Below, in pieces: positions 166 through 63,812 of a stretch of DNA of 64,000 nucleotides. Within the stretch, counting starts at the first letter, position 1; each line of letters opens with the position of its first letter. The stretch is taken from assembly GCA_964344345.1 (NCBI GenBank), contig CAYFNC010000005.1:2338-66337 (forward strand), written 5' to 3'. Origin of the DNA: an uncultured Hyphomicrobiales bacterium. Lineage in GTDB: Bacteria; Pseudomonadota; Alphaproteobacteria; Rhodospirillales; CAYFNC01. The notes under the pieces were generated by a model, which searched no databases, was not told the origin of the DNA, and was given only the letters and a program-made list of their open reading frames with translations. The position numbers were made by a program, and so were the translations under genes.

Positions 166-183
166 CGATGGCGGTTTCGTAAC

Positions 184-1062: not shown

Positions 1063-1763
1063 ATATCCTCTGCACCGTGCTCGCGCGCGGCGGCTCCAAA
1101 GGCGTTCCGGGCAAGAACCTGCGCGAGATCGCGGGAAAGCCGTTGATCGCCCATACTTTGGATCAAGCGCGGGCGTCGGGCTTGTTCGAGGCTATCGCCG
1201 TTAGCTCCGACAGCCGGGAGATCCTGGCCGCCGCCGAACGTTTCGGCGCCGACGTCCTGGTGAAGCGTCCCGACGAACTGGCGACCGACGGCGCGCCCAA
1301 GGGACCCGCCACCCGCCATTGCGTGGAGGAGGCGGAAAAGCGAACCGGCCGGCGCTTTGACTGCGTGGTCGATCTCGATTGCACCTCGCCGCTCCGCCTG
1401 TCGGAAGACATCGTCGGCGCGGTGGAGCTGTGGCGGACCAGCGGCGGGGCCAACGTGATCACCGGCGCGCCTGCTCGGCGCTCGCCCTATTTCAATCTTG
1501 TGGAGCGGGGCCCTGACGGGATCGCCAGACTGTCCAAGTCTCCGGACCGCCCCATCCACCGCCGCCAGGACGCGCCCGAATGCTTCGACATGAACGCGTC
1601 CATATACGTCTGGTCCCGCGACGCGTTCATGAAGAACCCGGACGCTCTCCAAGACGACACCCGCATATTCGTCATGCCAGAGGAGCGGTCCATCGATATC
1701 GACAGCGAACTGGACCTCGAATTCGTCTCGTATCTGATGCGCAAAAGAAGGGATGAAACATGA
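1047..1763 (+). CDS. Acylneuraminate (CMP-nonulosonic acid) cytidylyltransferase family protein
   Basis: NILCTVLARGGSKGVPGKNLREIAGKPLIAHT matches the CMP-NeuAc synthetase (CTP_transf_3) signature. An alternative GTG start at 1059 would give a GTGA overlap with the upstream stop. Confidence 0.85.
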   Translation: MGDTVNILCTVLARGGSKGVPGKNLREIAGKPLIAHTLDQARASGLFEAIAVSSDSREILAAAERFGADVLVKRPDELATDGAPKGPATRHCVEEAEKRTGRRFDCVVDLDCTSPLRLSEDIVGAVELWRTSGGANVITGAPARRSPYFNLVERGPDGIARLSKSPDRPIHRRQDAPECFDMNASIYVWSRDAFMKNPDALQDDTRIFVMPEERSIDIDSELDLEFVSYLMRKRRDET

Positions 1764-2572
1764 GCGCTCTGTTCGACCTGACGGGAAAGACCGCATTGGT
1801 CACGGGCGGGGCCGGGATCATTGGAAGCGCCGTTTGCCGAGCGCTGGCCGAGCACGGCGCGAACGTGGCCGTGGTCGACGTCAAGGGCGAGGCCGCCGAT
1901 GATCTGGCGCGCGCTTTGATCGCCGATCTGGACGCCAAGGCCGTCGGAATCCAAGCCGACGTTTCCGACCCCGGCTCGGTCGCCGCCATGGTGGACAAGG
2001 CCTGCGACGCGTTCGGCGCCGTCAACGCGCTCTTCAACAACGCCGCCTACAAGTCCAAGGACCTGAAACGATTCTTCCAGCCGTTCGAGGATTTCTCCCT
2101 CGACGTCTGGCGCGAGGTGGCGGCGGTCAACCTGGACGGCGTTTTCCTGGTCGCGCAGGCCGTGGGGCGACGCATGCGCGAGCAAGGCCGTGGCGGCAGC
2201 ATCATCCAGACCGCGTCAATATACGGCGTGGTCGCGCCGGACCAGAGAATCTACGAGGGATCGGAATACATGGACCTCGCCATCAACACGCCCGCGGTCT
2301 ACTCGGCGACCAAGGGGGCCGTGGTGGCGTTGACCAAGTATCTCGCGACCTATTGGGCCGACGCGGGCATCCGGGTCAACACCCTAACGCCGGGAGGGGT
2401 GGAAAGCGGGCAGAACGATGCGTTCGTGAAAAACTACGCCAGCCGCGTTCCCCTTGGCCGCATGGCGCGGGCGGAGGACATGGCGGGGGCGGCGGTCTAC
2501 CTCGCCTCCGACGCGTCCGCCTACGTCACCGGACAGAACCTGGTCGTGGACGGAGGCTGGACGGCTTGGTGA
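1760..2572 (+). CDS. Short-chain dehydrogenase/reductase (SDR)
   Basis: TGKTALVTGGAGIIGSA (TGxxxGxG) and YSATKGAV (YxxxK) motifs. ATGA overlap with the upstream gene. Confidence 0.9.
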   Translation: MSALFDLTGKTALVTGGAGIIGSAVCRALAEHGANVAVVDVKGEAADDLARALIADLDAKAVGIQADVSDPGSVAAMVDKACDAFGAVNALFNNAAYKSKDLKRFFQPFEDFSLDVWREVAAVNLDGVFLVAQAVGRRMREQGRGGSIIQTASIYGVVAPDQRIYEGSEYMDLAINTPAVYSATKGAVVALTKYLATYWADAGIRVNTLTPGGVESGQNDAFVKNYASRVPLGRMARAEDMAGAAVYLASDASAYVTGQNLVVDGGWTAW

Positions 2573-3777
2573 GAATCCACAAGGGCCATGTCCTGGGCGT
2601 CGCGGCGTTTCTTTCGGCGCCTGTCGCCGTGTTCGCGTCCAAGGCGCTGGCGGTTCTGTTCGTGGCCGCCGCCGTTTTCGCGCTAGGGGTCGAGCGCTGG
2701 CGCGCCGGCGCCTTTCCGAGACTAGCGCCGGGATGGGTCCTGATGATGGGCGCGGTGGTTCTGTGGGGCGCGGCGACTTGGGTCTGGGCGAACGACGCCG
2801 GACTCGCCATGGGTCAGACCCTGCGCCAGGCGGGGACGTTTCTGGCGGGATTGCTCCTGGTCGCCCTGGCCGCAAGCCAGTCGGACGAGGAGCGGGCTTT
2901 CTTCGACGCGGGCTTGGTGGCGGGAGTCGCGCTGGCCGTCGCGATCCTCGCCGTCGAAATCGCGACCGACGCCGTCATCAGCCGGACGGTTCGGCCGCTG
3001 TTCACGGTGAAGGCCGCCGAGCTTTATATCGCGGATTTCACCGCCAATCTGTATCGAACCGGGGCGGCGGTCACGGCCCTGATGCTCTGGCCCGCGCTGG
3101 CCGCGTTATGGGCGCGCGGGCGGAGGATCGGCGCCATCGTCCTGTTCGGGGCGGCGGCCGCGACGCTGGCCAACAGCCATAGCGGTTCCTCCATCCTGGC
3201 CTTGATGGCCGGAACCGGGGCGCTGTTCGCCGCCTTGGCCCTCGGCCGACGCGCGGCGGTCGTTTTTGGCGTGGTCTGCGTCCTGGCGGTCGCCCTGGCT
3301 CCGGCGGGCGCGAACATGGTGTCCGACATCCGGGCGTTCGAACGTCGTAATCCCGATCTGCCCTCGTCTCTGTATCCCCGCCTGTTCATATGGAAATCCG
3401 CCGCGGGGTTCATCGCCGAAACGCCGGCGCTGGGCCGGGGCCTGAACATGTCCAAGACCCTGTCGTCGCGGAAGGATATGGTCGAATATTCGTATTCCTA
3501 CAAGGACAAGACCGTGCGCAAGTTGGAGCCAATCCCGCTCCATCCCCACAACGTCGCCCTACAGGTCTGGCTGGAGTTGGGCGCGGTCGGGGCGGCCCTG
3601 CTGGCCATGGTTCTGGTCGGCTTGGTCCGGGCGGCGCGGGGGGCGTTCGATTACGCCGCCTTGTTTTCCGCCCTCGCCGTGGGTTTCGTGAGCTTCAGCG
3701 TCTGGGCGAGTTGGTGGCAAGGGTGCCTGTGGATGCTGGCGGCGTTCTCGGCCGGGGCCTGGAGAAAAGCCGAATGA
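2569..3777 (+). CDS. O-antigen ligase / Wzy_C-family polytopic membrane protein
   Basis: The track ORF 2353-3777 overlaps the SDR. GTG 2569 gives GTGA coupling. The protein has many hydrophobic helices, and LANSHSGSSILAL and HPHNVALQVWLELG resemble the Wzy_C periplasmic-loop motifs. Confidence 0.65.
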   Translation: MRIHKGHVLGVAAFLSAPVAVFASKALAVLFVAAAVFALGVERWRAGAFPRLAPGWVLMMGAVVLWGAATWVWANDAGLAMGQTLRQAGTFLAGLLLVALAASQSDEERAFFDAGLVAGVALAVAILAVEIATDAVISRTVRPLFTVKAAELYIADFTANLYRTGAAVTALMLWPALAALWARGRRIGAIVLFGAAAATLANSHSGSSILALMAGTGALFAALALGRRAAVVFGVVCVLAVALAPAGANMVSDIRAFERRNPDLPSSLYPRLFIWKSAAGFIAETPALGRGLNMSKTLSSRKDMVEYSYSYKDKTVRKLEPIPLHPHNVALQVWLELGAVGAALLAMVLVGLVRAARGAFDYAALFSALAVGFVSFSVWASWWQGCLWMLAAFSAGAWRKAE

Positions 3778-4790
3778 GGCGAGTGGCGCTTTCGGCGTGG
3801 GTCATCGGCTTTGCCGCCATGTTATGCCTGATCCAGGAATTCGCCGTGCGCTTGGCGCTGCCGGCCTACAACCCCGCGTTTCGACTGCAATTCATCCTGG
3901 GGAGCGCGGACCGTCCGATACTGGGCCCCCCGAATGAAACGCAACGGCAGATTTCCAATAAAGGCGATTACGATGTCGCCATTCGCTTCAATCGGTTCGG
4001 TCTCCGAGACGTCAAGAATCTGAACGCCGCCGAACCACGCGACTGGTTCGTCGTCGGAGACTCGTTCGTGATCGGCTGGGGCGTCGATGAGGATAAACGG
4101 TTCTCCAATGTCCTGGAAAGCCTGTCCGGCCGACCCGTTTACAATCTTTCATCGCCGGAAACGCTTCACGGCTATAAAAAGCTGATCGAATACGCCCGGC
4201 GGCAAGGGGCTCCCGTCGAACGCGTGGTGCTCGCCGTCAACATGGCGAACGACATCGACCATCCAAGCAAAGCCGAAAGTCCGGAAATAACCGCCACGCG
4301 GGATGAAGAGCCCTTTGATCTTCAATCGGTCAAAATGTTTTTGAAAAAGCACTCGGCGCTTTATTTCATCGCGACGTCCCTGGTCCATCGCGCGTCCTGG
4401 CTGGAAAGCGCGTTTAAAAAGATGAATCTGATCAAGGGGCTCGAGGAATTCCGTGAACGCAACTTCGATTCCGAAGACATTTCGTTCAGCGCCGACGCCG
4501 TGGAGGACATCGCCCGCATGGCGGAAACCCTGGTTGTCGTCATTCCCCATAGGGGACTCTGGCTGGGCCAGGGCCGCGAACGGGAAACGTCGCTTCATCA
4601 TGATTTCGTGGCGGCTTTGCGGCGGCGCGACATTCGGGTGTTGGATCTGAAACCCCTTTGGGAGGAGAATGGAGATCCCTTGGCTTGGCATTTCAGATTT
4701 GACGGCCATTGGAATCCCGAAGGCCACGCCAAGGCCGCCGCGAGAATCTTCGAGGAGCTGAAAACCATCCAAGCCGGCGGCGCGCGATGA
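3774..4790 (+). CDS. SGNH/GDSL-family hydrolase or acyltransferase with N-terminal membrane anchor
   Basis: ATGA overlap with the upstream stop. Hydrophobic N-terminus MRRVALSAWVIGFAAMLCLI. Block I FVVGDSFVIGWG (GDS) and block V FDGHWNPEGH (DxxH). Confidence 0.65.
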   Translation: MRRVALSAWVIGFAAMLCLIQEFAVRLALPAYNPAFRLQFILGSADRPILGPPNETQRQISNKGDYDVAIRFNRFGLRDVKNLNAAEPRDWFVVGDSFVIGWGVDEDKRFSNVLESLSGRPVYNLSSPETLHGYKKLIEYARRQGAPVERVVLAVNMANDIDHPSKAESPEITATRDEEPFDLQSVKMFLKKHSALYFIATSLVHRASWLESAFKKMNLIKGLEEFRERNFDSEDISFSADAVEDIARMAETLVVVIPHRGLWLGQGRERETSLHHDFVAALRRRDIRVLDLKPLWEENGDPLAWHFRFDGHWNPEGHAKAAARIFEELKTIQAGGAR

Positions 4791-6271
4791 TATTCAGCTC
4801 CGTGGAATTCCTGTTCGCATTCCTGCCTGTCACGTTCGCCGGGTTTTTCATTCTCGCCTCCTTTGGGACGTCCCACAGGCTAGCGGTTCTATGGCTTACG
4901 TTCGCCTCCCTGGTGTTCTACATGTGGTGGAACCCCTGGTACGTGATCTTGCTTCTGGGCTCGGTGGGCGGCAATTTCGCCCTGGGATGGATCATGGCGC
5001 GCCATCCCTCGAAGGTCCTTCTGGCATGCGGCGTCGCCGCCAATCTCGGGCTGCTGGGGTATTATAAATACACGAACTTCTTTTTGGATTTCGCGTCCCA
5101 GGCCTTGGGAGAGAGTCTGCGGGTGGAAGGCATCGTCCTGCCGCTTGCGATTTCCTTTTTCACGTTTCAGCAGATCGCTTATTTGTTCGACGTTCATCAG
5201 GGGAAGGCCAGAAGTTTCGATTTTGTCGATTACACCCTTTTCGTGACGTTCTTTCCCCAGCTCATTGCGGGGCCCATCGTCCATTACAGCGAAACCATTC
5301 CCCAGATCGAACGGGAATCCACCTTTCATATCAATTGGAGCAACATTCGCGTCGGGCTCGCGATCCTGACCATCGGCCTTTACAAGAAGCTGGTCTTCGC
5401 GGACGGCATGGAGCCCTATGCGACAGAGGTGTTCTCCACGGCCGCCGAAACCCCCCCCATGCTGCTCGAGGCGTGGGTGGGTTCGCTTGCATACACATTT
5501 CAAATCTATTTTGATTTCTCGGGATATTCGGACATGGCCATCGGCTTGGCGCGGCTTTTCGGCATCCGCCTGCCTATCAATTTCGATTCTCCGTACAAGG
5601 CGAACAGCATCATCGAGTTCTGGCGCAGATGGCATATCACCCTTTCCCGGTTTCTCAGGGACTATCTTTATATCCCGCTTGGCGGGAACCGGTTGGGGTC
5701 GTCGCGCCGATACGTCAATTTGATGGCGACGATGCTGTTGGGGGGGCTCTGGCACGGCGCGGCGTGGACCTTCGTGGTCTGGGGCGGCCTCCATGGTCTG
5801 TTCTTGATGGTGAACCATTATTGGAATTTCTTGAAGAGACCCCGGGAAAAGCCGGGCTTCGCCCAGCGCGCGTTCGGAAGGGCGCTAACGTTTCTGTGCG
5901 TCGTCATCGCGTGGGTCGTATTCCGAGCGGAGACGTTTCCCGAGGCGATCGCGGTGTTGAGCGGCATGGCGGGCCTGAACGGCGTGGAGACGCTCAGCCG
6001 GTTGCCCGCGGCCACGCCCTGGATCGGAGCGCTATTGGCCATCGTCTGGTTTGCCCCCAGCACCCAAGAATGGATGTCCAGATCCGGTCCCGCGCTTGGC
6101 TACGAGGTTTCGGAGCCCAAAATGGTCGGCATGGCCTTGGGCAAGGGAAGACTGTCGGGAATGCGTCGCGCCGCGGTTTGGCTGTGCCTTCTATCGCTGG
6201 GCGCCGTTAGCGCCTTGATCGCCTTCGAAAAAGGGACGGATCCCAGCACGTTCATCTATATGATTTTCTAG
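4787..6271 (+). CDS. MBOAT-family membrane O-acyltransferase (AlgI/DltB/PatA-like)
   Basis: MIFSSVEFLFAFLPV N-terminus. FWRRWHITLSRFLRDYLYIPLGGNR contains the conserved MBOAT His region. ATGA overlap with the SGNH gene. Confidence 0.9.
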   Translation: MIFSSVEFLFAFLPVTFAGFFILASFGTSHRLAVLWLTFASLVFYMWWNPWYVILLLGSVGGNFALGWIMARHPSKVLLACGVAANLGLLGYYKYTNFFLDFASQALGESLRVEGIVLPLAISFFTFQQIAYLFDVHQGKARSFDFVDYTLFVTFFPQLIAGPIVHYSETIPQIERESTFHINWSNIRVGLAILTIGLYKKLVFADGMEPYATEVFSTAAETPPMLLEAWVGSLAYTFQIYFDFSGYSDMAIGLARLFGIRLPINFDSPYKANSIIEFWRRWHITLSRFLRDYLYIPLGGNRLGSSRRYVNLMATMLLGGLWHGAAWTFVVWGGLHGLFLMVNHYWNFLKRPREKPGFAQRAFGRALTFLCVVIAWVVFRAETFPEAIAVLSGMAGLNGVETLSRLPAATPWIGALLAIVWFAPSTQEWMSRSGPALGYEVSEPKMVGMALGKGRLSGMRRAAVWLCLLSLGAVSALIAFEKGTDPSTFIYMIF

Positions 6272-6312
6272 GTCCCGATGATTAACGGGCCAAAAAGCTT
6301 CCGCAATCCCAC

Positions 6313-7962
6313 ATGATCGCCGCTCTCCGCCGCAAGGCCCGCCAAGTTTTGGACGACCCGACGCTCCGGCTATGGCTGGCGCGCCGCCTGTTGCGGTTGG
6401 AGCCGGGGCCGCCCGCGTTCCAGGCCCACAAGCCCCCCTACCTTCCCCGATACGATTGCGCCGCCCGGCCCCGGGGACTGGAGACCGTTGACGCGCCCGC
6501 GCCGGACGCGCCAATCGAACTGGCGCTTCCGGGCGAGACGGTCGTGGTCGCGCCGGACGCGCCGGGCGCCGTCTTCGAGCGCGGCTTCGCGGACACGGAG
6601 ACGCTTCTGGGGCTGCACCGTTTCGCCTGGCTGCCGTTGCGGCCCTTCGACGCCTCATGGACGTGCGCGCTCTGGCGGGCGTGGATGGACCGGTTCGCGG
6701 TTCCGGACCAAAGCTGGGCCTGGCACCCCTACACCGCCGCCGAGCGCGCCATCAATATTCTGGACCACGGCCCGCCCGGGCCGGAAGACCGGACCCTGGA
6801 GGTTCTCGCCGCCCACGGCCCCGCGATCATGGCGGGGTTGGAGTACTTCGGCGAGCATCACACGTCGAACCATTTGGCCAACGACGGGCGGGGCCTTTAC
6901 CTGCTTGGCCTCGCGCTCGGCATGGAGGACTGCGCGGAGGCGGGCGCGGCCATCATGCTGGAGGAGGCGAAGCGGATTTTCCTGCCGTCCGGGATGCTGC
7001 GGGAAGGCTCCAGCCACTACCATCTTCTACTCACCCGCCAGTACGCGTCCGCCTGGCTCGCCGCCCGCCGACACGGCCGGGGGGCCGAAGCCGGGGCGTT
7101 CGAGGACATTGTCCGGCGCGCCATGGCGGTCATTCCCGGCCTGGTTCTTCCGGGGGGCATGCCCTTGGTCGGCGACATCTCGCCCGACTGCCCGCCATCC
7201 CATCTGGCGGGCTTCCTGCCCCGGGGCGGGGGCGGCTGGACGGCGGGCCTGGACGACAAGGACCGCGCGCTGATCGAGGCCATGAAGGACCAGCCCCCGG
7301 TCCCGGCCGAGGGCTGGCTGCAATTCCGTTCGGGCCACTGGTCCGGGCTGTGGCGCGGCCCGCCCGAAGGCTGGTCCCACATGCCGGGCCACGGGCACCA
7401 GGACGTGGGGGGCTTCGAACTGCATTACGAGCAAGAGAGGGTGTTCGTCGATCCAGGACGCGGCGCATACGGGGAGGACGGCGATGCGGCGCTCTACCGC
7501 TCCGCCCGCGTCCACAATTCCGCCCTGGTGGACGGCCATGACCCCTATCCGCCCAACCGGCCCTATTACTCCGATGGGTTCCGGGCGCGGATCGGCGGGG
7601 CCGAGTTGGCCGCCGACGATGGCGTCACCCTGCGCCACGAGGGCTTCGGGCGATTGCGGGGCGTGGGCGCGCAGGTCAGGCGCTGGCGCTTCGAGAAAGA
7701 TCGCATGATTCTGACCGACCGCATCGAGGGGACCCGAGAGGCCACGGTCACCCGGACCTTGGTCACGCCCATGTTCGCAGAGTTCCATGACGGCGCGTTG
7801 ATGCTGGACGGGCGGTTTCGGATCGCCGCCGACGCGCCCTTGCGGTTGGAGCCCATGACCGTCTGGCACGCCTACGGCGAGGGCAGGACGGGAACCGCCA
7901 TCGTGATCGAGGATCGCGCGCGTTTGCCCTTCGAGGGAACCATAACGGTGGAGGTCGCCTGA
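6313..7962 (+). CDS. Heparinase II/III-like (alginate-lyase superfamily) protein
   Basis: C-terminal GHGHQDVGGFELHYEQERVFVDPGRGAYG and ARVHNSALVDG match the heparinase II/III family pattern. 549 aa. Confidence 0.65.
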   Translation: MIAALRRKARQVLDDPTLRLWLARRLLRLEPGPPAFQAHKPPYLPRYDCAARPRGLETVDAPAPDAPIELALPGETVVVAPDAPGAVFERGFADTETLLGLHRFAWLPLRPFDASWTCALWRAWMDRFAVPDQSWAWHPYTAAERAINILDHGPPGPEDRTLEVLAAHGPAIMAGLEYFGEHHTSNHLANDGRGLYLLGLALGMEDCAEAGAAIMLEEAKRIFLPSGMLREGSSHYHLLLTRQYASAWLAARRHGRGAEAGAFEDIVRRAMAVIPGLVLPGGMPLVGDISPDCPPSHLAGFLPRGGGGWTAGLDDKDRALIEAMKDQPPVPAEGWLQFRSGHWSGLWRGPPEGWSHMPGHGHQDVGGFELHYEQERVFVDPGRGAYGEDGDAALYRSARVHNSALVDGHDPYPPNRPYYSDGFRARIGGAELAADDGVTLRHEGFGRLRGVGAQVRRWRFEKDRMILTDRIEGTREATVTRTLVTPMFAEFHDGALMLDGRFRIAADAPLRLEPMTVWHAYGEGRTGTAIVIEDRARLPFEGTITVEVA

Positions 7963-7963
7963 C

Positions 7964-9847
7964 GTGTGCGGTCTTGCCGGAGTCTACTTCCCCCGCGACG
8001 GGATTCCCGTCGAGGCCGACCTGGAGGCCATGCTGGCCGTCATGCGCCATCGGGGACCCGACGGGGTCGGCAAGTTCGTCTCCGACGACCGCCGTTTCCA
8101 GATCGGTTTCGCGCGCCTCGCCATTATCGACCTGGAAACCGGCGACCAACCCATCGTCGAGGGCGGCGGGCGGCGCGTTCTGGCCGGGAACGGCGAGATC
8201 TACAATTACCGGGAGCTCCGCCGGGACCCCCGCGCCAAGGACTACGAATACCAGACCAACGGCGACATGGAGGTGGTCCTGCCGTTGGCGGACGCGATGG
8301 GCGAGGACTTTGTCCATGAACTCATGGGCATGTACGCCCTGGCGATGTGGGAGGCCGACGGCAACCGACTTCGCCTGATCCGCGACCGGCTGGGGATCAA
8401 GCCGCTTTACTGGGCGCGCGTCCAAGGCGGCGGGATCGTCTTCGCCTCCGAGATCAAGGCGCTGTTCGCCTCGGGCCTGGTCGCGCCCGCGATCGACCAG
8501 CGTTCGGTTTCGGCCTACCTGGGCCACGGCTACGTGCCCGCGCCGGACACGCTGTACGACGGGGTGCGGAAGCTTCCGCCCGCCCATACGCTGACCCTGA
8601 AAGACGACGGATCCATAGCGCTCAAGCGCTATTGGCGGCCCCACGGGGCCGACAATGTTCCCCAAGACCCGGACGGCGCGCGGGAGCATCTGACCGAGTT
8701 GCTGCGCGAAAGCGTCGGCCTGCACCTTCGCGCCGACGTGCCCACCGGGGCGCTGCTGTCGGGGGGGATCGATTCCGGGCTGGTGGTGGCGCTGGCGGCC
8801 GAAAGGATGGACGGCCCGCTTGAGACCTTCACCGTCGGGTTCGAGGGCGCGGCCGTGGACGAGACCCCGCTCGCCCGCCTGGTCGCCGAACGCTACGGAA
8901 CCCGCCACCACGAATTCCGCCTGTCCGCCGACAGCATCGCCGAACACATGCCCAAGCTGGTCTGGCATTCGGAAGAGCCCCTGTCCGACGCCTCCCTACT
9001 GCCCAACCACCTGATCGAACAAGTCCTGGCCGACCACGTGACCGTGGCCTTGAACGGGACCGGCGGGGACGAGTTGTTCGCTGGGTATGGACGCTATTTC
9101 CAACTGCCGGTCGAGGCGCGGTATTTAAAAATTCCCGAAGGCCTGCGCAAGGGCCTGATCGAGCCCATGGTCGCGCGCGTCTCGCCGATGACCGCTTGGA
9201 AGCTGCGGCGCGCCGAGAAATTCGACCGCGACCGAGGGGAGTACCTGCACGACCACTGCGCCTTCTTCCCCGGCCCAATGCGCAAGCTGATCGGCAATCG
9301 GCAAAAGCCGACGCCCCCGACGCAAACCCCATTCTGGGCCGAATTCCAGGGCCCGAACGACACGGCGGGACTGGCGTCCGAGATTTGCACCTACTTGCCC
9401 GAGGACCTGCTGCACCTTCTGGACCGCACCTCCATGGCCTGGAGCGTCGAGGGGCGAGTGCCGTTCCTGGACCACCGGCTGGTGGAGGCCGCCCTCGCCG
9501 TCCCGCCCGAGGTCCGCGCGCCGAACGGTCGGCAGAAGGGGTTGGAGCGGGCCATGGCCGAACCGTTCCTGCCGCCCGAGATCCTTTCCGCCCCCAAGCA
9601 GGGTTTCGCGTCGCCCGCGCCCGCGTGGTTCCGAGGACCGTTCGGGGCGCTCGCCCGGCGGATATTGATGACGCCCCGGGCGTTGGAGCGAGGCTGGTGG
9701 ACGGCCCAGGGGATCGACCGACTGTTCGCGGACACGGACAAGCACGCGTTCCGCCTCTACGCCCTGTTGAAACTGGAGATGTGCGCGCGCATCCATGTGG
9801 AGGGCGTGGCGCCCACGGAGCTGGAGGCCTTCGCCGATGGCGCCTGA
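7964..9847 (+). CDS. Asparagine synthase (glutamine-hydrolysing) family amidotransferase, paralog 1
   Basis: GTG start one nt after the upstream stop. N-terminal nucleophile (M/V)CGLAG. SGGIDS PP-loop motif (LLSGGIDSGLVVAL). 627 aa. Confidence 0.9.
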   Translation: MCGLAGVYFPRDGIPVEADLEAMLAVMRHRGPDGVGKFVSDDRRFQIGFARLAIIDLETGDQPIVEGGGRRVLAGNGEIYNYRELRRDPRAKDYEYQTNGDMEVVLPLADAMGEDFVHELMGMYALAMWEADGNRLRLIRDRLGIKPLYWARVQGGGIVFASEIKALFASGLVAPAIDQRSVSAYLGHGYVPAPDTLYDGVRKLPPAHTLTLKDDGSIALKRYWRPHGADNVPQDPDGAREHLTELLRESVGLHLRADVPTGALLSGGIDSGLVVALAAERMDGPLETFTVGFEGAAVDETPLARLVAERYGTRHHEFRLSADSIAEHMPKLVWHSEEPLSDASLLPNHLIEQVLADHVTVALNGTGGDELFAGYGRYFQLPVEARYLKIPEGLRKGLIEPMVARVSPMTAWKLRRAEKFDRDRGEYLHDHCAFFPGPMRKLIGNRQKPTPPTQTPFWAEFQGPNDTAGLASEICTYLPEDLLHLLDRTSMAWSVEGRVPFLDHRLVEAALAVPPEVRAPNGRQKGLERAMAEPFLPPEILSAPKQGFASPAPAWFRGPFGALARRILMTPRALERGWWTAQGIDRLFADTDKHAFRLYALLKLEMCARIHVEGVAPTELEAFADGA

Positions 9848-55659: not shown

Positions 55660-57009
55660 ATGGAACGGGCTGACTTTTTGCGGGACTGGTACGCCGCCGC
55701 CCGGGATTTGATCGAGCGCCTTTTTCCCGAACGCCAGCTGGTTTTCCGCACCGAGGGACGGGTGAACTTCTTCCGTCTCGGCAGCGGAGCCCAATTCGGC
55801 GCGGCCGCGCTCGCGGCGCTTGCGCTCTGCTGGACCGCGTTTTCCAGCTACAGCTACATCTTCCACAGCCGGATCGTGGCGGAAAAGAACGCGGAGATCT
55901 TCAACCACCGCCTCGCCTATTCGAGCCTGTTGAAGCAGGTGTCCGACTACCAGCGCTCCTTCACCGAGCTGTCCATCAAGCTCGACGACAGCCGCAACGC
56001 CATGCTGGAGCTGGTGGAGCGCAACGCCGCCCTGCAGCAGAACCTGAAGACCGTCGAGAGCCAGCTGCGCCACACCGAGGACGAACGCGCGCGCATCGTT
56101 TCGGTCCGCGAGGACCTGCAGGGCAAGCTGAACAACATCCAGTCCAGCATGCGCGAAATGGCCGGCCGCAACTTCGAGCTTCGCGACGACCTGGAAACCG
56201 TGGAGTCCGACCTGCAGTCCGTGGCCCAGGAGCGCAACCAGGCCCTGTTCGAAAGCGCCCGCATGCGCCGCAAGATCAAGGGGCTTGAGACCCGCCTCTC
56301 CGAGCTCGAGGAAACCGAGACCGAAGCCGTCAACCGCCTGGCCGAAAGCGCCGGAGGCGCCATCGAGGACATGGAGCGGGTGATCGAGCTGACCGGACTG
56401 GATCCGGACGCCCTCGCCAAGGCCGCCGGCGGCGCCAAGGGCCAGGGCGGTCCGTTCTTCGCCGCCAAGAAAAACGGCGCGCCCGCGAGCCGTCTCCAAG
56501 GCGACCTGATCGGCCTCGATTCAAGGCTGCGCCGCTGGGAGACGCTCCAGGACGCCATCATCCGCGTGCCCCTGGCCGTGCCGCTCGACGGCTACTACGT
56601 CACCAGCAGCTACGGCAAGCGCCGCGATCCGGTGAACCGGAAATGGGCCATGCACTACGGCCTGGACCTCGGCGGCACGCTGAAGTCCCCGGTCCGCGTC
56701 ACCGCGCCCGGCGTGGTCACCCACGCGGGCTGGAAGGGCAAGTACGGCAAGCTGGTCGAGATCGACCACGGCGCCGGAATCAAGACCCGCTACGGGCATT
56801 TGCACAAAGTGCTCGTAAAAAAGGGACAGAAAGTTTCGTTTCGTGATAAGATCGGGCTCCTTGGGAATACGGGACGCAGCACCGGGGCCCACCTTCATTA
56901 CGAAGTGGTCTTCAAGGGAAAAACGCGCGACCCGATGAAGTTCATCAAAGCGGGAAGGTATGTTTTCCAAGAAAAAGAAACAGCCCGGAAAGTCTCTGGT
57001 CGCCGGTAG
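55660..57009 (+). CDS. M23/LytM-family metallopeptidase with N-terminal anchor and long coiled coil (LmdC/EnvC-like)
   Basis: TM AAALAALALCWTAFSSYSYIF, ~220 aa of coiled coil, then M23 catalytic motifs HYGLD (HxxxD) and GAHLHYEV (HxH). Confidence 0.85.
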   Translation: MERADFLRDWYAAARDLIERLFPERQLVFRTEGRVNFFRLGSGAQFGAAALAALALCWTAFSSYSYIFHSRIVAEKNAEIFNHRLAYSSLLKQVSDYQRSFTELSIKLDDSRNAMLELVERNAALQQNLKTVESQLRHTEDERARIVSVREDLQGKLNNIQSSMREMAGRNFELRDDLETVESDLQSVAQERNQALFESARMRRKIKGLETRLSELEETETEAVNRLAESAGGAIEDMERVIELTGLDPDALAKAAGGAKGQGGPFFAAKKNGAPASRLQGDLIGLDSRLRRWETLQDAIIRVPLAVPLDGYYVTSSYGKRRDPVNRKWAMHYGLDLGGTLKSPVRVTAPGVVTHAGWKGKYGKLVEIDHGAGIKTRYGHLHKVLVKKGQKVSFRDKIGLLGNTGRSTGAHLHYEVVFKGKTRDPMKFIKAGRYVFQEKETARKVSGRR

Positions 57010-57439
57010 CGCGGGACAAAGCAGCGCCGCGCCCTCGCTGATCAGCGCCGACCTTCGCATGGTCGGGGATCTCTACTGCGAGGGCGAGATCCAGGTGGAC
57101 GGAACCATCGACGGCGACATCCGCAGCCACATCCTGCTGGTGGGCCAGACCGCCGTGGTCAAGGGCGAGATCGTCGCCGACGACGTTCGCATCCACGGCT
57201 CCGTCAACGGCCAGATCAAGGGCAAGAACGTCAGCCTCGCCCGCACCGCCCACGTGGTCGGCGACATCCTGCACGAGAACCTCTCCATCGAGAACGGGGC
57301 CTACCTGGAAGGCCACTGCAAGCGGATGGAGGAGCACGTGGACGAAGCCGCCTCCCAGGCCCCGATCAACCTGCTGATCGAGGACGGAACCGAGGACGAG
57401 CCCCTCGACGACGCCGCCCAGGCGCAGTTGGCCGGGTAG
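56960..57439 (+). CDS. Bactofilin (polymer-forming cytoskeletal protein)
   Basis: N-terminal MFSKKKK membrane-targeting-type motif and a beta-helical DUF583 core (GDLYCEGEIQVDGTIDGDIRS...VKGEIVADDVRIHGSVNGQIKGKNVSL). Overlaps the M23 gene by 50 nt. Confidence 0.9.
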   Translation: MFSKKKKQPGKSLVAGSAGQSSAAPSLISADLRMVGDLYCEGEIQVDGTIDGDIRSHILLVGQTAVVKGEIVADDVRIHGSVNGQIKGKNVSLARTAHVVGDILHENLSIENGAYLEGHCKRMEEHVDEAASQAPINLLIEDGTEDEPLDDAAQAQLAG

Positions 57440-57474
57440 CCCCCCTCCGCAATTCCGGACATCGAGCCAAATTC

Positions 57475-57785
57475 GTCGTCATCCCGCGCGGGCTAGAGCG
57501 TATCGGGACTAATGGGATTCACTCTTTCATTCGTCATGGCTGGGCTCGAACCACTGCTGTCCGGTTAAGCCCACATGATCCGCGGTAATAGAAAACACAC
57601 CATCGGAAACATTGAAAAGATGTCATGCGCGGGCTTGACCCGCGTATCCACGCTTTCGGTTCCGCGCAAGAGTTTCGTGGATGCCCGCGTCAAGCGCGGG
57701 CATGACGGTGTGTGATTGATTATCGTGGCTTAATGTTCAGCCGATTTTTCTTAACCGGACAGCCGTGGGCTCGACCCGGCCATCC
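57475..57785. repeat. Cluster of about 5 REP-like hairpin elements (family GGGTCAAGCCCGGCCATGACG) in both orientations
   Basis: Copies near 57475-94, 57531-52, 57621-44 (reverse) and 57684-708, 57765-85 (forward). Each is stem-TCAAG/CTTGA-stem followed by CATGAC. Confidence 0.6.
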
Positions 57786-58142
57786 ACCCTTGGAAAACGG
57801 CGGCCCTTTCCCCCCGCCGCGCCAACAAGCGGTTTTGTGACGACGGTCACGGACCGGCGGGCGGGTTTGGGGCATGGTGGGTCTCGACAGCCAAAGACAA
57901 CCGGCTCCCTCCAAGCCCCGCGCCGCCCCTCCCCCTCCCTCCCCCTCGAAACGGCGCGGGGCTTCCCCTTTCCGGGTTCCGCCTGACTGCGGGAACGCCG
58001 CCGCCCTCGGAGGCCTCGAGGGCGAGCGGGAAGCGGGCTTTTTCCACGCAATTCTTGGCGAGATGTTTCTAGCGTCCGGGGATCGTGTCCCGGGCGCGCG
58101 TCTTATGGTATTCTCGGCGAGCGCAATAAACGGGACGGACGC

Positions 58143-60500
58143 ATGCCGGATCAGGTCGGAATAAAACAAGATGGCGGCAACATAATAATCAACACGATCA
58201 ACGTCGCCGTCGAGGACGCCAAGGCCAAACGGGAGATGGCGTTCGCCTCCCACACCGCCAAGCTCCCCGTCGTTTCCGGGCGGCTGTTCGGCCGAGAGGC
58301 GGAGCTCGCCATGCTGGACAAAGCGTGGGAGGACAAGGACATCCACATGCAGTCCGTGGTCGCCTTCGGCGGGGTCGGCAAGTCGGCGCTGACGTGGCGG
58401 TGGCTGAAGGACATGGAATCCGACAACTGGCGCGGGGCGGAGCGGGTGTTCGGCTGGTCGTTCTACAACCAGGGGCAGAAGGAAACGGCCGAAACCTCGG
58501 CCGAGCCCTTCATCCATTTCGCCCTGAATTGGTTCGGCGACCCCAACCCCTTGGACGGCGCGGCGGAGGAGCGCGCCGCCCGGCTGGTCGCGCTCATCCG
58601 GGCGAAACGGACGCTGCTGATCCTGGATGGGTTGGAGCCGATGCAGAACGCCGCGCCGGGCGTGTTCGGCCGGATCAAGGACCCGGGCCTCGCCGCCGTG
58701 GTCCGCGAGCTGGCGCTGGACAACCCCGGCCTGTGCCTGATCGCCACCCGGGTCGCGGTGGCGGACGTCGAGCATTTCGACGGGGCCCAGGCGCGGGTTC
58801 ACGACCTGCAAACCCTGTCCAAGGAGGCGGGGGCGTCGATCCTTCGCGCCCATGGGGTTGAGGGAATGGACGTGGAGCTGGAGCAGGCGTCCGAGGATTT
58901 CGGCGGCCACGGGCTGGCTCTGGACCTGCTGGGGAAATACCTGAAGCGCATCCACGGCGGCGATGTGCGCAAGCGCGACAAGGTGAAGGTGTTGAAGGTC
59001 GATGAAAAACAAGGCGGGCACGCGCGCCGGATGATGGAATCGTACGAGCCCCACCTGGGCGACGCCGAACGCGCCATCCTGCGGCTGCTGGGGTTGTTCG
59101 ACCGTCCGGCGGAATGGAAATTGATTAACGTGGTGGCGGCGGCCCCGGCGATCGAGGACTTCACCGAACACCTGGTCGGGCTTGGGGAGGAGGGTTGGGC
59201 CGAGGCGCTGGCGACGCTTCGCGACGAACGCCTGCTGCTCGACGGCCCCAACGACGCCCCGCTCGACGCCCACCCCCTGGTGCGCGAGCATTTCGGCGCG
59301 GCGCTGAAGCGCGAGAACGAGGCGGCCTGGAAGGAAGCCCATTCCCGCCTCTACGACCACCTGCGCGACGCCACCGAGGACCTCCCCGACACCCTGGACG
59401 GCCTCGCCCCCCTCTACCAGGCCGTGGCCCACGGCTGCGCCGCCGGGCGGTATGCTGAGGCGTTTGACGAGGTGTATTGGCGGCGGATCATGCGGGAGGA
59501 CAAGTTTTTCGCCACGAGAGAGCTCGGCGGTTACGGCCCCGACCTCGGGGCGGCGGCGTGCTTTTTCGAGACGCCCTGGTCCAAGCCGGTGGAGGCGCTG
59601 GAGGAACGCGAACGGTCCTGGCTTCTCAACGCGGCCGGGTTACGCCTCCGCACGCTGGGCCGGTTCGGGGAAGCGGCCGCGCCCATGGCGGCGGGGTTGG
59701 AAAGCGTCATCGCCCGAGAGGACTGGAAAGACGCCGCCGTCCAGGCCTCCAGCATGAGCCAGCATCACCTCGCCCTCGGCGCGGTGCCGCTCGCGGAGGA
59801 GGCGGGCGCGCGGGCGGTGGAGTTGGCCGAGCGCGGCGGCGATGCGGGCCGGCGCATGATCAACAGGACTGTCCACGCCGACGCCCTGCATCAGGCGGGC
59901 GGCCTCGACGCGGCCGAGGTCCTGTTCCGCGAGGCCGAGGCCATGCAGAAGGAATTCCAGCCCGGCGATCCCATCCTCTATTCCCTTCAGGGCTTCCGGT
60001 ACTGCGACCTTCTGCTGGCGCGCGGGCGGGCGTCCGAGGCGCGGGAGCGGGCCAGGGACACCAGGGTTGTCGCCGAGGGCAACATCTGGCTTCTCGACAT
60101 CGCCCTCGACGCCTTGACCATCGGCCGCGCCCACTTGGCCGAGGGCGACGCGGACGCGGCCCGGACGTGGCTGGACCGCGCCGTGGACGGCCTGCGCCGG
60201 GCGCATCACAACGAATTCCTCCCCCGAGGCCTCCTCGCCCGCGCGGCGCTGGGACGGACGGTGGAGGATTTCGACGACGCCGAACGCGACCTGGACGAGG
60301 CCTGGGCCATCGCCGAGCGCGGGCCCATGCGGCTTCACATGGCCGACGCGCAGTTGGAATGGGCGCGGCTGCGCTTGGCCCAAAACCGCGTTCCCGACGC
60401 CCGCGACCACCTGGACAAGGCCCGCGCCCTGATCGACGAGACCGGCTACCACCGCCGCGACGCGGACGTCATCGAGTTGGAGGCGGCGCTGGGGTCCTAG
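58143..60500 (+). CDS. STAND NTPase, NB-ARC-type, with C-terminal TPR-like repeats and no recognisable effector domain
   Basis: P-loop VVAFGGVGKSALTW. Walker B RTLLILDGLEPMQ. LCLIATRVAV. GGHGLALDLLGKYL (GLPL-like). DAHPLVREHF (MHD-like). About 300 aa of helical repeats at the C-terminus. Confidence 0.8.
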   Translation: MPDQVGIKQDGGNIIINTINVAVEDAKAKREMAFASHTAKLPVVSGRLFGREAELAMLDKAWEDKDIHMQSVVAFGGVGKSALTWRWLKDMESDNWRGAERVFGWSFYNQGQKETAETSAEPFIHFALNWFGDPNPLDGAAEERAARLVALIRAKRTLLILDGLEPMQNAAPGVFGRIKDPGLAAVVRELALDNPGLCLIATRVAVADVEHFDGAQARVHDLQTLSKEAGASILRAHGVEGMDVELEQASEDFGGHGLALDLLGKYLKRIHGGDVRKRDKVKVLKVDEKQGGHARRMMESYEPHLGDAERAILRLLGLFDRPAEWKLINVVAAAPAIEDFTEHLVGLGEEGWAEALATLRDERLLLDGPNDAPLDAHPLVREHFGAALKRENEAAWKEAHSRLYDHLRDATEDLPDTLDGLAPLYQAVAHGCAAGRYAEAFDEVYWRRIMREDKFFATRELGGYGPDLGAAACFFETPWSKPVEALEERERSWLLNAAGLRLRTLGRFGEAAAPMAAGLESVIAREDWKDAAVQASSMSQHHLALGAVPLAEEAGARAVELAERGGDAGRRMINRTVHADALHQAGGLDAAEVLFREAEAMQKEFQPGDPILYSLQGFRYCDLLLARGRASEARERARDTRVVAEGNIWLLDIALDALTIGRAHLAEGDADAARTWLDRAVDGLRRAHHNEFLPRGLLARAALGRTVEDFDDAERDLDEAWAIAERGPMRLHMADAQLEWARLRLAQNRVPDARDHLDKARALIDETGYHRRDADVIELEAALGS

Positions 60501-60549
60501 CGCCCGCCGCATCCAAAAACGAACCGCCCCGCCCCTTCCCCCGTCACCC

Positions 60550-60578
60550 CCGGGTCAAGCCCGGCCATGACGAAAGAA
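60550..60578 (+). repeat. 29-bp REP-family copy (ccgggtcaagcccggccatgacgaaagaa), left of arsM
   Basis: Identical to 62363-62391. Confidence 0.7.
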
Positions 60579-60835
60579 ACGGCGAGCCCCATTATACAGC
60601 CGGCCAAGGACTTGACCGGCTCCAATCCCTCAATCGCCGGGCGCATTCCTCCGGAATGCTTGGCTTTCGGCGCATAATCGCCGGCCCGCTTCGCAGGCTG
60701 CCAAGCGATCGCAAGTCATAGCTCGCGCCGCTTGGTATTACGCCAAGCCTCCCCAGGCTCCATGCGCGCCTTGACATCGCGCGCCGATCTCCTATCTCTT
60801 CCGGAATTGTCCCAACCCTCGACAAGGAGCCGCCC

Positions 60836-61691: not shown

Positions 61692-62408
61692 ATGCCCCGC
61701 GACACGGTTCTGTTCGACATCAACGAAACCGTTCTGGACCTTTCGTCACTGAGGCCCGGGTTCGAGGCGGCGTTCGGCGACGCGGCGGCGGCGTCCACGT
61801 GGTTCGCCATGCTATTGCATTCGTCGACCGTCTGCGCCTTGACCGGGGTTGGGACCGGGTTCGCCGATCTGGCAGCCGCCACGCTGGACGCCTTGGCCGC
61901 GCGCCGGGGCGCGGCGGTGTCCCCGGATCAAAAGGACGGAATCCTCGCCGGTTTCGCAAGCCTTGCGCCCCACGCGGACGTCAAGCCCGGCCTGGCGCGC
62001 CTGCGGGCGGGAGGATACCGGACGGTCGCGTTCTCCAATTCCTCGCGAAAGCTGGTGGCGAGCCAGATCGCCAACGCCGGGCTCGAAGATCATTTCGACG
62101 AGGTTCTTTCGGTCGAGGAAACGGGAAGCTTCAAGCCCGACGCCAAGGTCTATCGCTTCGGCGCGGAGCGCCTTGGGCGGTACATCGAGGATTTGCGCCT
62201 CGTCGCCACCCATGACTGGGACACCCACGGCGCCATGTCTGCGGGCATGCGCGCGGCCTACATCGACCGTTCTGGCGCGCCGTACCATCCGCTCTACCTG
62301 CGCCCGGGCGTTTACGCCTCGGACATGGGCGAGGTCGCGGAGCGGATCATCGCCGTCGATAGCCGGGTCAAGCCCGGCCATGACGAAAGAATGAGCGAAT
62401 CCCTTTAA
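61692..62408 (+). CDS. HAD-superfamily hydrolase (haloacid dehalogenase type II-like)
   Basis: Motif I LFDINETVLDL, motif II VAFSNSS, and K...HDWD motifs. The last ~15 codons (SRVKPGHDERMSESL) are encoded by a REP-family element. Confidence 0.7.
   Translation: MPRDTVLFDINETVLDLSSLRPGFEAAFGDAAAASTWFAMLLHSSTVCALTGVGTGFADLAAATLDALAARRGAAVSPDQKDGILAGFASLAPHADVKPGLARLRAGGYRTVAFSNSSRKLVASQIANAGLEDHFDEVLSVEETGSFKPDAKVYRFGAERLGRYIEDLRLVATHDWDTHGAMSAGMRAAYIDRSGAPYHPLYLRPGVYASDMGEVAERIIAVDSRVKPGHDERMSESL
62363..62391 (+). repeat. 29-bp REP-family copy, right of the arsM-HAD pair (inside the HAD 3' end)
   Basis: Identical to 60550-60578. Confidence 0.7.
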
Positions 62409-62421
62409 GTCAGACCTAATT

Positions 62422-63123
62422 CTAGGCGTCCTTCGCCAGCCTGAGCCCATAGGTCCCGAACCCCTGGTCGGGCAGGCCCCCCATGCGGCGCGAGCATCTT
62501 AGGCCCTCGGCGTGGCGCTTCCAGCTGCCGCCCCGGAAGCTCCGGTGCGAGCCGCCGGTCTCGGGGATTTTGGCGCCCGAGGCCAGCGCCGCGTGGGCGT
62601 CGGTGAAGTAGAGCTCGTGGGTCCATTCGTGGGCGCCGCCGCTCATGTCGCATAGGCCGAGCGCGTTCGGCTTCTTCAGGCCCACCGGATGGGTGCGGAA
62701 GGTGGAGTTGGCGTCGTACCAGGCGAAGTCGACCAGCTCTTCGATGTCGCTGGTGCCCGCCCATTTCCGCTTTTGGCCCCGGTCGCGGGCGGCGAACTCC
62801 CATTCGGCCTCGCGCGGCAGGCGGTATCCGCCCTCGGTCAGCTCGTTGAGCTTGGCGATGAAGTCCTGGGCCTGGTCCCAGCTCACCATTTCCAAGGGAT
62901 AGTCGTCGCCCTTCTTGAACATGGACGGGTTGTAGTCCATGACCTTGCGCCATTGGCCCTGAGTGACCGGATATCGGCCGATCCAGAAGTCGCCGACCTT
63001 GGTCGGCACCACCGGAAGCTCGTCCGGGAAGCCGTCGCCGAACAGGTCGCCCATGTCGAAGCGTCCGCCCTCGACGAAGACGAACGGCATGCCGGTGACG
63101 GGATCGACGTGGGTTGCGGTCAT
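62422..63123 (-). CDS. FGE-sulfatase (SUMF1/EgtB/PvdO) domain protein, paralog 2
   Basis: ATG 63123 (MTATHVDPVTGMPFVFVEGGRFDMGD). YRLPREAEWEFAAR, GGAHEWT and FRGGSW motifs. 233 aa, no signal peptide. ATGA overlap with the upstream paralog. Confidence 0.8.
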   Translation of the reverse strand: MTATHVDPVTGMPFVFVEGGRFDMGDLFGDGFPDELPVVPTKVGDFWIGRYPVTQGQWRKVMDYNPSMFKKGDDYPLEMVSWDQAQDFIAKLNELTEGGYRLPREAEWEFAARDRGQKRKWAGTSDIEELVDFAWYDANSTFRTHPVGLKKPNALGLCDMSGGAHEWTHELYFTDAHAALASGAKIPETGGSHRSFRGGSWKRHAEGLRCSRRMGGLPDQGFGTYGLRLAKDA

Positions 63124-63812
63124 GGCGCGGGGCTCCAGGCGACGCGGACGCCGACGTAGCTGTCCTTGTACGTCGGCCCGTGGTTCGACCGGTCCGAGCA
63201 GCGGCAGAGGACCTTGTAGCTCCGCCAGCTTCCCCCCCGGATCGTCCGGTCCTCGCCGATGCCCCGGTGGACCGGGTTGCGGGGCGCGTGGTGGGCGTAG
63301 GCGTCGTGGGCGAAGACGTCGGCGACGAACTCGTAAACGTTGCCCGACATGTCGTGAAGGCCGAGCCCGTTGGGCTTGAGCTTGCCCACCGGTTGGGTCT
63401 GCTTGCCCGCCGTGTCGTCGTACCAGGCGTATTCGGGGGCCAGGTCGGGGTCCGCGAGGCCCGCCAGATATTCGTCCTTGCCGCCGCTCCTGGCCGCGTA
63501 CTCCCACTCGGCCTCGGTGGGGAGCCGGAAGGTTCCCTCGGCCTTCGCGTTCAGGGCGGCGAGGAAGTCCTGGACGTCGAACCAGCTCACGGTTTCCACC
63601 GGATGGTCGGGGCCGAGCGCGAACGTGGACGGGTTCGCGCCCATGGCCGCCTCCCACTGGACCTGGGTGACGAGGAAGCGGCCGAGGTGGAAATCGTCCA
63701 CCGCCACCTCGTGGACCGGCAGCTCGTTCTGGAACCCGTCGCCGAACCCGTCGCCCATGCGGAACGACCCGCCGGGGACCGGGACCAGATCGATTCCCGC
63801 CACGGTCTTCAT
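63120..63812 (-). CDS. FGE-sulfatase (SUMF1/EgtB/PvdO) domain protein, paralog 1
   Basis: LVPVPGGSFRMGD, FRLPTEAEWEYAAR, GNVYEFV and IRGGSW motifs. 230 aa, no signal peptide. Starts 1 nt after the upstream stop. Confidence 0.8.
   Translation of the reverse strand: MKTVAGIDLVPVPGGSFRMGDGFGDGFQNELPVHEVAVDDFHLGRFLVTQVQWEAAMGANPSTFALGPDHPVETVSWFDVQDFLAALNAKAEGTFRLPTEAEWEYAARSGGKDEYLAGLADPDLAPEYAWYDDTAGKQTQPVGKLKPNGLGLHDMSGNVYEFVADVFAHDAYAHHAPRNPVHRGIGEDRTIRGGSWRSYKVLCRCSDRSNHGPTYKDSYVGVRVAWSPAP

Follow-up and report, generated by a model that had tools for sequence, protein, structure and literature searches.

The stretch of DNA analyzed here, called the window below, comprises 64,000 nucleotides of contig CAYFNC010000005.1 from an uncultured Hyphomicrobiales bacterium. 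Close to its end it carries a complete gene for a STAND NTPase followed by TPR repeats, and this gene is a rare core-only member of a large family of NLR-like proteins, i.e., it encodes the conserved switch and presumed sensor of the family without any of the effector domains of its relatives. The identical protein (P0001) is already known from a contig of 143 kb, and the locus is matched at 100% identity by a Logan contig of 2,740 bp. The gene and its parts are listed here; invariance refers to a family alignment of 40 sequences, and NOD stands for the nucleotide-binding oligomerization domain, which includes the nucleotide-binding domain (NBD).

58143-60500, + strand: complete core-only STAND (NLR-like) NTPase-TPR gene, an open reading frame (ORF) of 785 aa
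58143-58256, + strand: N-terminal 38 residues before the core, without a recognizable domain, unique and predicted to be disordered
58257-59342, + strand: NOD module (NBD, helical domain, and winged helix), residues 39-400, from AlphaFold secondary structure, Foldseek, and a sub-threshold AAA_16 match
58284-58307, + strand: hhGRExE-type motif LFGREAEL, residues 48-55 (G50 and R51 family-invariant)
58365-58385, + strand: Walker A (P-loop) FGGVGKS, residues 75-81 (G76, G77, G79, and K80 family-invariant)
58614-58637, + strand: Walker B LLILDGLE, a D-G-x-E variant, residues 158-165 (D162, G163, and E165 family-invariant; strand E157-162 in the model)
58737-58751, + strand: sensor-1-type motif LIATR, residues 199-203 (R203 family-invariant; strand E197-202 in the model)
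58902-58934, + strand: GLPL-like motif GGHGLALDLLG, residues 254-264 (H256, L258, and L262-G264 family-invariant)
59271-59294, + strand: MHD-like motif HPLVREHF, residues 377-384 (H377, P378, L379, and R381 family-invariant)
59343-60497, + strand: C-terminal helical arm (residues 401-487) and ~7.5 TPR pairs (residues 488-785), the presumed sensor, from the model and TPR profiles

The 785-aa ORF and its set of NTPase motifs had been picked out in a sequence-only reading of this DNA, and the ORF and all six motifs listed above were found in place. That reading had put about 45 residues before the NTPase, which agrees with the homology of the relatives beginning at residue ~39, and had seen no nuclease, protease, Sir2, TIR, or HTH domain, for none of which the protein has a Pfam match. 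Its remark that the 5′ end is AT-richer was borne out by measurement (52% GC in the first 30 codons, 69% in the whole gene), but the feature is not distinctive, as the 5′ end of the LipA gene has 53% GC likewise. An antisense ORF of 570 aa also lies over the gene (57720-59432, - strand); it is a by-product of high GC content and not a gene.

Fold and class of the protein

The AlphaFold2 model, which was built from the alignment of 40 family sequences, has a mean predicted local distance difference test score (pLDDT) of 88.7 and a predicted TM-score (pTM) of 0.85. It runs from a five-stranded P-loop NBD through helical and winged-helix parts and a helical arm to 15 regular helices at residues 488-784, in agreement with the roughly 300 aa of TPR-like repeats that had been read from the sequence. 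In a Foldseek search the best match of the model was the archaeal STAND-TPR protein PH0952 (PDB 6mfv; 5e-14, over the full length), followed by Apaf-1 (1e-9 to 3e-8) and then by CED-4 and the NRC2, NRC3, Roq1, and G10 resistosomes; MalT (domain III), the TPR regions of AfsR and of LGN/Pins, and SAMD9 were also matched, as was Avs3 (8dgc) at 3e-6. No NACHT structure was found among the best 50 fold matches or among the PDB profile matches. The sequence profiles of the PDB gave marginal matches for the NTPase region, only to PH0952 (E = 0.0045) and to NB-ARC-type proteins, namely a wheat NB-ARC protein (9h2l; 0.037) and Sr35 (0.2), and in this search the GLPL-like motif was aligned with "GGvpLAi" of wheat Sr35/CNL9. 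The TPR region matched MalT domain III and the TPR region of AfsR in the same kind of search.

The Pfam matches of the protein are weak. AAA_16 was found below threshold at residues 47-167 (22.8 bits; cut-off, 32.6), TPR_MalT was likewise sub-threshold (41.8 bits; cut-off, 45), and TPR_12 also matched, while NCBIfam yielded a weak match to the MalT TPR region and nothing else. There was no Pfam match to NB-ARC (PF00931) even at E ≤ 1, and none to NACHT (PF05729). When 40 relatives were searched, AAA_16 was matched by all 40, NACHT weakly by 38, and NB-ARC weakly by 12, the best scores being 9.7e-9 for NACHT and 1.4e-7 for NB-ARC; one relative (P0244) passes the PF05729 cut-off (33.1 bits vs. 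26.7).

All features of the STAND class are present in the protein, i.e., Walker A, Walker B, the sensor-1 Arg, the helical domain, and the winged helix with its conserved His, and the strand order of the model is as expected for STAND, so that the protein certainly belongs to this class. Judging from the predicted fold together with the motifs, it is on the AP-ATPase/MalT-like side of the STANDs. The Walker B consensus of NACHT proteins is D-G-x-D-E, which the D-G-x-E of this protein resembles. The NB-ARC label given by the sequence-only reading therefore holds in part: the hhGRExE, degenerate GLPL, and MHD-like motifs and the Apaf-1-like fold speak for it, while PF00931 is not matched by the protein and weak NACHT matches are commoner than weak NB-ARC ones in the family. 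The more general description of an NLR-like switch with a TPR sensor agrees with the motifs, the model, and the fold matches alike.

The protein has no C-terminal extension beyond the core, and its N-terminal segment resembles nothing that we compared with it. Codon periodicity starts with this segment; its residues 1-32 have pLDDT values below 50 (about 30), and its best score against the linkers of 193 relatives was 32, which is under the null mean of 34.4. An apparent resemblance of the segment to the class of relatives with transmembrane (TM) helices or β-repeats (P0008 and P0056) was rejected as evidence of descent from that class, as it was not significant.

The family and its effector domains

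The conserved core of the family comprises about 750 aa of NOD and TPR and is common to bacteria and archaea, with about 50-60% identity. On record for the protein are 4,930 word-indexed matches, the top 120 of which are ~50% identical to it over residues 39-785, and an exhaustive search yielded 8,032 clusters at 50% identity with E ≤ 1e-3 and 2,881 with E ≤ 1e-30. In reference genomes there are at least 556 loci, distributed over Acidobacteriota, Chloroflexota, Planctomycetota, Desulfobacterota, Nitrospinota, Cyanobacteria, Myxococcota, and methanogenic or methanotrophic archaea, and the best match of our protein in reference-genome contigs is 53% identical. The family is horizontally spread, and its neighborhoods have no conserved gene context. 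The TPR region (56-63% pairwise identity across phyla) is as conserved as the NOD (52-64%). Homologs were not found in phage and plasmid collections by tblastn; an origin from a phage or plasmid, or a role as phage decoy, was rejected in view of this result and of viral fold matches that were generic TPR or AAA+ ones.

Of the 120 nearest proteins, most have a length of 920-940 aa and bear TIR_2, TIR, or SEFIR at the N-terminus. Other N-terminal modules in the relatives are PNP_UDP_1, CHAT, DUF4062 (lately renamed NIR, a NADase domain; 10.64898/2026.09.04.749371), HATPase_c_4, EAD7 (in P0047, P0077, L010, and L065), and a helical module of ~85 aa; some relatives begin with one or two TM helices, with or without Gly/Asp-rich repeats, and in some members the effector is C-terminal instead (SIR2_2, TIR_2, or PNP). 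PADLOC v2.0.0, run on 40 relatives, identified their N-termini as ThsB-like TIR (2.5e-33), bSEFIR (2.5e-61), PNP-superfamily effector, and CHAT, while none of its models matched the core in these relatives apart from a generic TPR model. A comparison with PADLOC models, of the kind that the sequence-only reading had proposed, gave no support for Avs, as these models, those of Avs included, had 0 matches to our protein. Pfam detected no HTH or other DNA-binding domain in the protein or in 40 relatives. Because the relatives carry TIR, SEFIR, PNP, CHAT, SIR2, DUF4062, and EAD7, and none an HTH, the family is of the conflict type, i.e., modular and NLR-like, and not a group of MalT/AfsR regulators; a DNA-binding domain in the orthologs, which would have spoken for a regulator, was not found in the 40 relatives, and the proposed assignment to conflict proteins stands.

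The Gly/Asp-rich repeats are β-prone and precede the core in P0056, P0025, and P0058 (e.g., "GDKVGGDKITGDGTVKIDTGGEVGGHVAGRD"); they sit after the TM helix in P0056 and P0025, and P0058 has no TM helix. In L006 (6141-7839), the gene of P0056 directly adjoins a HEPN/MNT pair (HepT-like and NTP_transf_2) and genes for a ParE-like toxin and an HTH antitoxin, which is the setting of a defense or toxin-antitoxin island.

The core-only form is rare. Only one of 78 reference loci (L025) has no N-terminal extension, and in about 90% the extension is at least 130 aa long. Among the best 150 representatives, about eight begin at the core, at least four of these with a C-terminal TIR or PNP, which leaves about two core-only proteins (P0274 and P0318). 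P0064 was left out of the minimal forms since only 8 bp lie between the start of its gene and the end of the contig. Wherever the upstream context of another minimal copy could be read, a source of an effector adjoined it. P0036 is a split TIR-NLR, preceded by an overlapping TIR_2 ORF of 128 aa in two independent assemblies; P0013 is flanked by two paralogs, the downstream one of which begins with a TM helix; and L025 (a Byssovorax metagenome-assembled genome (MAG), 36-8031) has three tandem paralogs, the first of which ends in SIR2_2. The end of the second gene of L025 ("LLDALGHLLPAQHETLLFKLGVP...") and the start of the third ("ILDALLAMLPGQFDFLAAKLDVP...") are similar helical modules of ~70 aa, which have no Pfam match and may be an EAD-like adaptor, possibly an undescribed one. 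Such paralog arrays occur in 2 of 79 loci overall. At L003/L004 (7643-10445), a TIR_2 ORF of 128 aa overlaps the start of an 814-aa NOD-TPR ORF by 29 nt; the split is identical in two independent assemblies and may represent either a true two-gene TIR/NLR arrangement or a frameshift that became fixed.

Several known systems share parts of this architecture. Avs/AVAST and the wider group of defense STANDs (Gao et al.; Lee et al., 2026, Nature, PMC13581612) are built in three parts like the relatives, with an exchangeable effector, a STAND NOD, and a large sensor resembling TPR. Broad horizontal spread and a conserved sensor are likewise found in Avs and in this family, which suggests a conserved target, and the fixed-pattern sensors of Avs (PMC13581612) resemble the conserved TPR region. 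In contrast, our protein has no effector, a part on which the cell-death readout depended in every Avs tested, and the family core is matched by no PADLOC model of Avs. With Apaf-1, CED-4, plant NLRs, and PH0952, which are the best fold matches, the protein shares the hhGRExE, GLPL-like, and MHD-like motifs; it differs from the AP-ATPase/NB-ARC proteins in a Walker B of D-G-x-E instead of D-D/E, in a sensor of TPR rather than WD40 or LRR, and in having no CARD, coiled coil, or TIR. The relatives are annotated as "NACHT domain-containing protein" and have the same range of effectors as bNACHT proteins (Kibby et al., 10.1101/2022.07.19.500537), but the SNaCT C-terminus of bNACHT01 is diversifying, whereas the sensor of this family is conserved. 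The same building blocks (STAND, TPR, TIR, PNP, caspase-like domains, and effector-associated domains (EADs)) make up the EAD-coupled conflict systems (Kaur, Burroughs, Iyer, and Aravind; PMC7159879, PMC8195603), although Pfam finds no EAD in our protein and the window has no gene for an EAD-bearing effector. MalT and AfsR likewise have a STAND NOD joined to a MalT-like TPR superhelix, while the family has no DNA-binding domain. The domain order of the dominant form of the family is that of the plant TNPs (TIR-NB-ARC-TPR; PMC12856790); the parallel is one of architecture only, and our protein has no TIR.

The region around the gene

The gene is bounded on both sides by repeats resembling repetitive extragenic palindromic (REP) units, and upstream of it lies a long gap.

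57440-58142, no strand: non-coding gap of 703 bp, without codon periodicity or effector relic
57505-57575, - strand: copy of a long REP-like unit with core GGGTCAAGCCCGGCCATGACGAAAGAA, in the opposite orientation to the downstream copy (repeat I1)
57536-57783, no strand: nested palindrome of ~250 nt resembling a REP or a miniature inverted-repeat transposable element (MITE), with outer arms of 34 nt and an inner hairpin at 57622-57706 (inverted repeat I2, direct repeat D4)
60530-60600, + strand: copy of the long REP-like unit just past the stop codon of the STAND gene (repeats I1 and I8)

The ~700 bp of REP-rich non-coding DNA that had been described upstream of the gene thus measure 703 bp and do contain REP-like palindromes. 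The large palindrome was predicted to fold as DNA with -72.5 kcal/mol (z = -7.7), and short REP-like copies lie at 57622-57639 and 57689-57706. Good copies are confined to 57.5-62.4 kb of the window (13 vs. 0.83 expected), and the units divide its last 6.5 kb into cassettes, the first with the STAND gene and the next with a methyltransferase and a HAD hydrolase. The last codons of the HAD ORF ("RVKPGHDERMSESL") come from the third long copy (62343-62413). The phase spread of the gap is at most 0.18, against 0.45-0.64 in the flanking genes. No Rfam family and no tRNA was found near the locus, and a promoter scan upstream of the gene, which covered the sigma-70 consensus only and is uninformative, returned nothing.

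A decayed effector upstream of the gene was sought by tblastn with the N-termini of 113 relatives, against 55-58.4 kb and against the whole window, and was rejected: nothing credible was found, and the gap is aperiodic. The E-value of the best non-self match was 0.008, for a target of 3.4 kb, and TIR queries gave weak matches at 57430-57585 (E of 0.5-1.2).

The upstream neighbors encode PgpA, an M23 peptidase whose N-terminal region is DUF5930, and a bactofilin; the gene of the peptidase overlaps the start of the bactofilin gene by 50 nt (55660-57439, + strand). Downstream are a SAM methyltransferase, the HAD hydrolase, and two stand-alone FGE-sulfatase proteins, and a REP copy and a terminator-like hairpin lie between the STAND gene and the methyltransferase. 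The nearest relatives of the M23 protein come from Rhodospirillales MAGs and are at most 58% identical, a sign of a poorly sampled lineage, which accounts for the lack of a close ortholog of the STAND gene. A block of PDH, LipA, RatA, CinA, PgpA, M23, and bactofilin genes is shared with two Rhodospirillales relatives (the M23-bactofilin pair together with the block in L087), both of which carry different genes past the bactofilin and have no STAND gene; a third relative locus is more rearranged. Because the synteny of the relatives stops right before it, the STAND gene sits exactly at a synteny breakpoint.

The two FGE-sulfatase proteins (229 and 242 aa; Pfam 2.4e-46 and 3.2e-40) are encoded in tandem on the - strand at 62425-63812, ~2 kb past the STAND gene. 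FGE-sulfatase is a listed sensor domain of defense STANDs (PMC13581612), and such domains are also listed as sensors of bacterial NACHT proteins.

A paralog of the STAND core is not present elsewhere in the window, and neither an EAD nor an effector or paralog gene was found in the 58 kb before the gene or the 3.5 kb after it. In these respects the gene does stand alone and effector-less in a REP-bounded patch, as had been proposed.

Interpretation and rival explanations

It is very probable that the protein belongs to this family and has the effector-less architecture described above. We favor, at a probability of about 0.55, the reading that it is the disarmed and orphaned sensor-switch of a known NLR-like STAND family. 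The mechanism below is modeled on solved STANDs, and the ligand gating, the oligomerization, the role in defense, and the loss event are inferred. By comparison with Apaf-1, MalT, and Avs, the TPR arm would hold the NOD in a closed, ADP-bound state, until binding of a conserved ligand, probably derived from an invader, led to nucleotide exchange and oligomerization, which in the relatives would cluster and thereby activate the TIR, PNP, CHAT, SIR2, or TM modules. No family-invariant residue of the switch or the sensor is lost in our protein, yet it would have nothing to cluster. Its core may have been created by, or carried into, the REP-bounded rearrangement site, and the effector would have been removed, or would never have arrived, during rearrangement at that breakpoint. 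The protein probably still binds nucleotide and ligand and self-associates; alone it would neither kill nor signal, and any activity left to it would depend on a partner with an effector, encoded elsewhere.

The sequence-only reading had reasoned that an effector-less NLR implies a hidden partner or an unrecognized mini-effector. This conclusion was not sustained, since the N-terminus is predicted to be disordered and matches no linker or neighbor and the window contains no partner; simple effector loss is at least as likely as either. The sequence itself bears marks of relaxation: it is the longest branch in the set compared (mean identity 51.5%, vs. 59.5% among the other sequences), and 25 of its 242 near-invariant positions are altered, some three times the median of about 8, although the TIR-bearing P0061 has 26.

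Several observations weigh against the disarmed reading. All 84 invariant columns are retained without gaps, and the 25 departures are mostly conservative and lie outside the NTPase motifs. The GC contents at the three codon positions are 0.74, 0.45, and 0.89, the host genes having 0.81-0.94 at the third (GC3), and codon periodicity is strong; host-like GC3 and periodicity suggest long residence with the frame kept. A gene that does not look decayed favors retained function and thus, possibly, a partner out of view. The core-only P0274 and P0318 exist elsewhere, so that proteins of this form may make up a true, if minor, architecture; our view ends 3.5 kb downstream of the gene, leaving room for a paralog or partner elsewhere in the genome; and PADLOC has no model of the core, and no known defense genes lie beside the gene. 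The intactness of the ORF is weak evidence either way in DNA of 69% GC, in which a chance antisense ORF reaches 570 aa.

The main rival explanation makes the protein a working sensor that co-assembles in trans with an effector-bearing paralog or an adaptor encoded elsewhere, like the sensor/helper NLR pairs of plants. We keep it in play because of the signs of purifying selection on the protein and of the array context of other minimal copies, since both of the other N-minimal genes with readable context lie in paralog arrays that bear an effector or adaptor, arrays that occur in just 2 of 79 loci; some family members also carry EAD7, and the "EAD principle" links STANDs to separately encoded effectors (PMC8195603). 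We nevertheless consider it unlikely, as no paralog, EAD, or effector gene was found in the 58 kb upstream and 3.5 kb downstream, the protein has no adaptor domain at either end, hetero-oligomerization is purely hypothetical in this family, and the tandem arrays could reflect duplication followed by decay. The broader proposal that core-only copies are dedicated sensors of a prokaryotic sensor/helper NLR network, with the helper of our protein elsewhere, is more doubtful still. Sequestration would need no effector at all: the TPR sensor would trap a conserved protein of an invader in ATP-dependent oligomers and give non-lethal immunity. The switch motifs are intact, and the conservation of the TPR region, equal to that of the NOD across phyla, suggests a fixed and conserved target. 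Deletion or mutation of the effector ended the cell-death readout in all cases in Avs (PMC13581612), however, and about 98% of the family keep the effector, which implies that the core alone is insufficient, and so we regard sequestration as improbable.

It could be imagined that the N-terminal peptide is itself the output module, as an amyloid-type (BASS-like) motif or a membrane-active segment, given that its residues 11-24 (GGNIIINTINVAVE) are rich in β-branched residues and that P0056, P0025, and P0058 have N-termini with β-prone repeats, some with TM helices. This is very improbable. Amyloid signaling is defined by a matching C-terminal motif of an adjacent effector, usually within 10 bp (10.1101/2020.01.06.895854), while 703 bp separate the STAND gene from its nearest upstream neighbor, whose tail matches at the level of chance; the peptide has no hydrophobic helix (maximum KD19 of 0.72, vs. 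>2 in the TM forms), and its low pLDDT and its lack of likeness to the linkers were noted above. The tail in question, "PINLLIEDG" of the bactofilin, forms direct repeat D15 with "TINVAVEDA" of the NLR; as an amyloid-motif partner (INLLIED vs. INVAVED) it was rejected, because 616 of 5,000 shuffles were as good (p ~0.12) and it ranked 13th of 505, and no neighboring protein in the window has a C-terminus that matches above chance. A MalT/AfsR-type regulator of metabolism, or of the adjacent methyltransferase and HAD genes, is the remaining candidate, and it is hardly credible. The sub-threshold TPR_MalT and NCBIfam MalT matches, the likeness to MalT domain III and the AfsR TPR region in both fold and sequence, and the position of the downstream genes on the same strand would suit it, whereas the 40 relatives bear death or immune effectors and, like our protein, no DNA-binding domain, a REP copy and a terminator-like hairpin precede the methyltransferase gene, and the relatives do not share the gene neighborhood.

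The family is one of a known kind, the modular STAND/NLR-like conflict proteins of prokaryotes. Kaur et al. (2020, 2021), Kibby et al., and Lee et al. (2026) have reportedly compiled large catalogs of such proteins. The occasional loss of an effector will not surprise a specialist, and the family itself is of more interest than this copy, being very large, present in bacteria and archaea, and marked by an unusually well-conserved TPR sensor and by over eight effectors that substitute for one another. A partner-dependent sensor, should the gene encode one, would hint at NLR pairing in bacteria, a principle established thus far in plants. If it is a disarmed remnant, as we favor, it would show NLR-like immune genes gaining and losing their executioner domains at REP-bounded accessory sites, and it would be useful for annotation, in that such genes should not be scored as functional defense systems.

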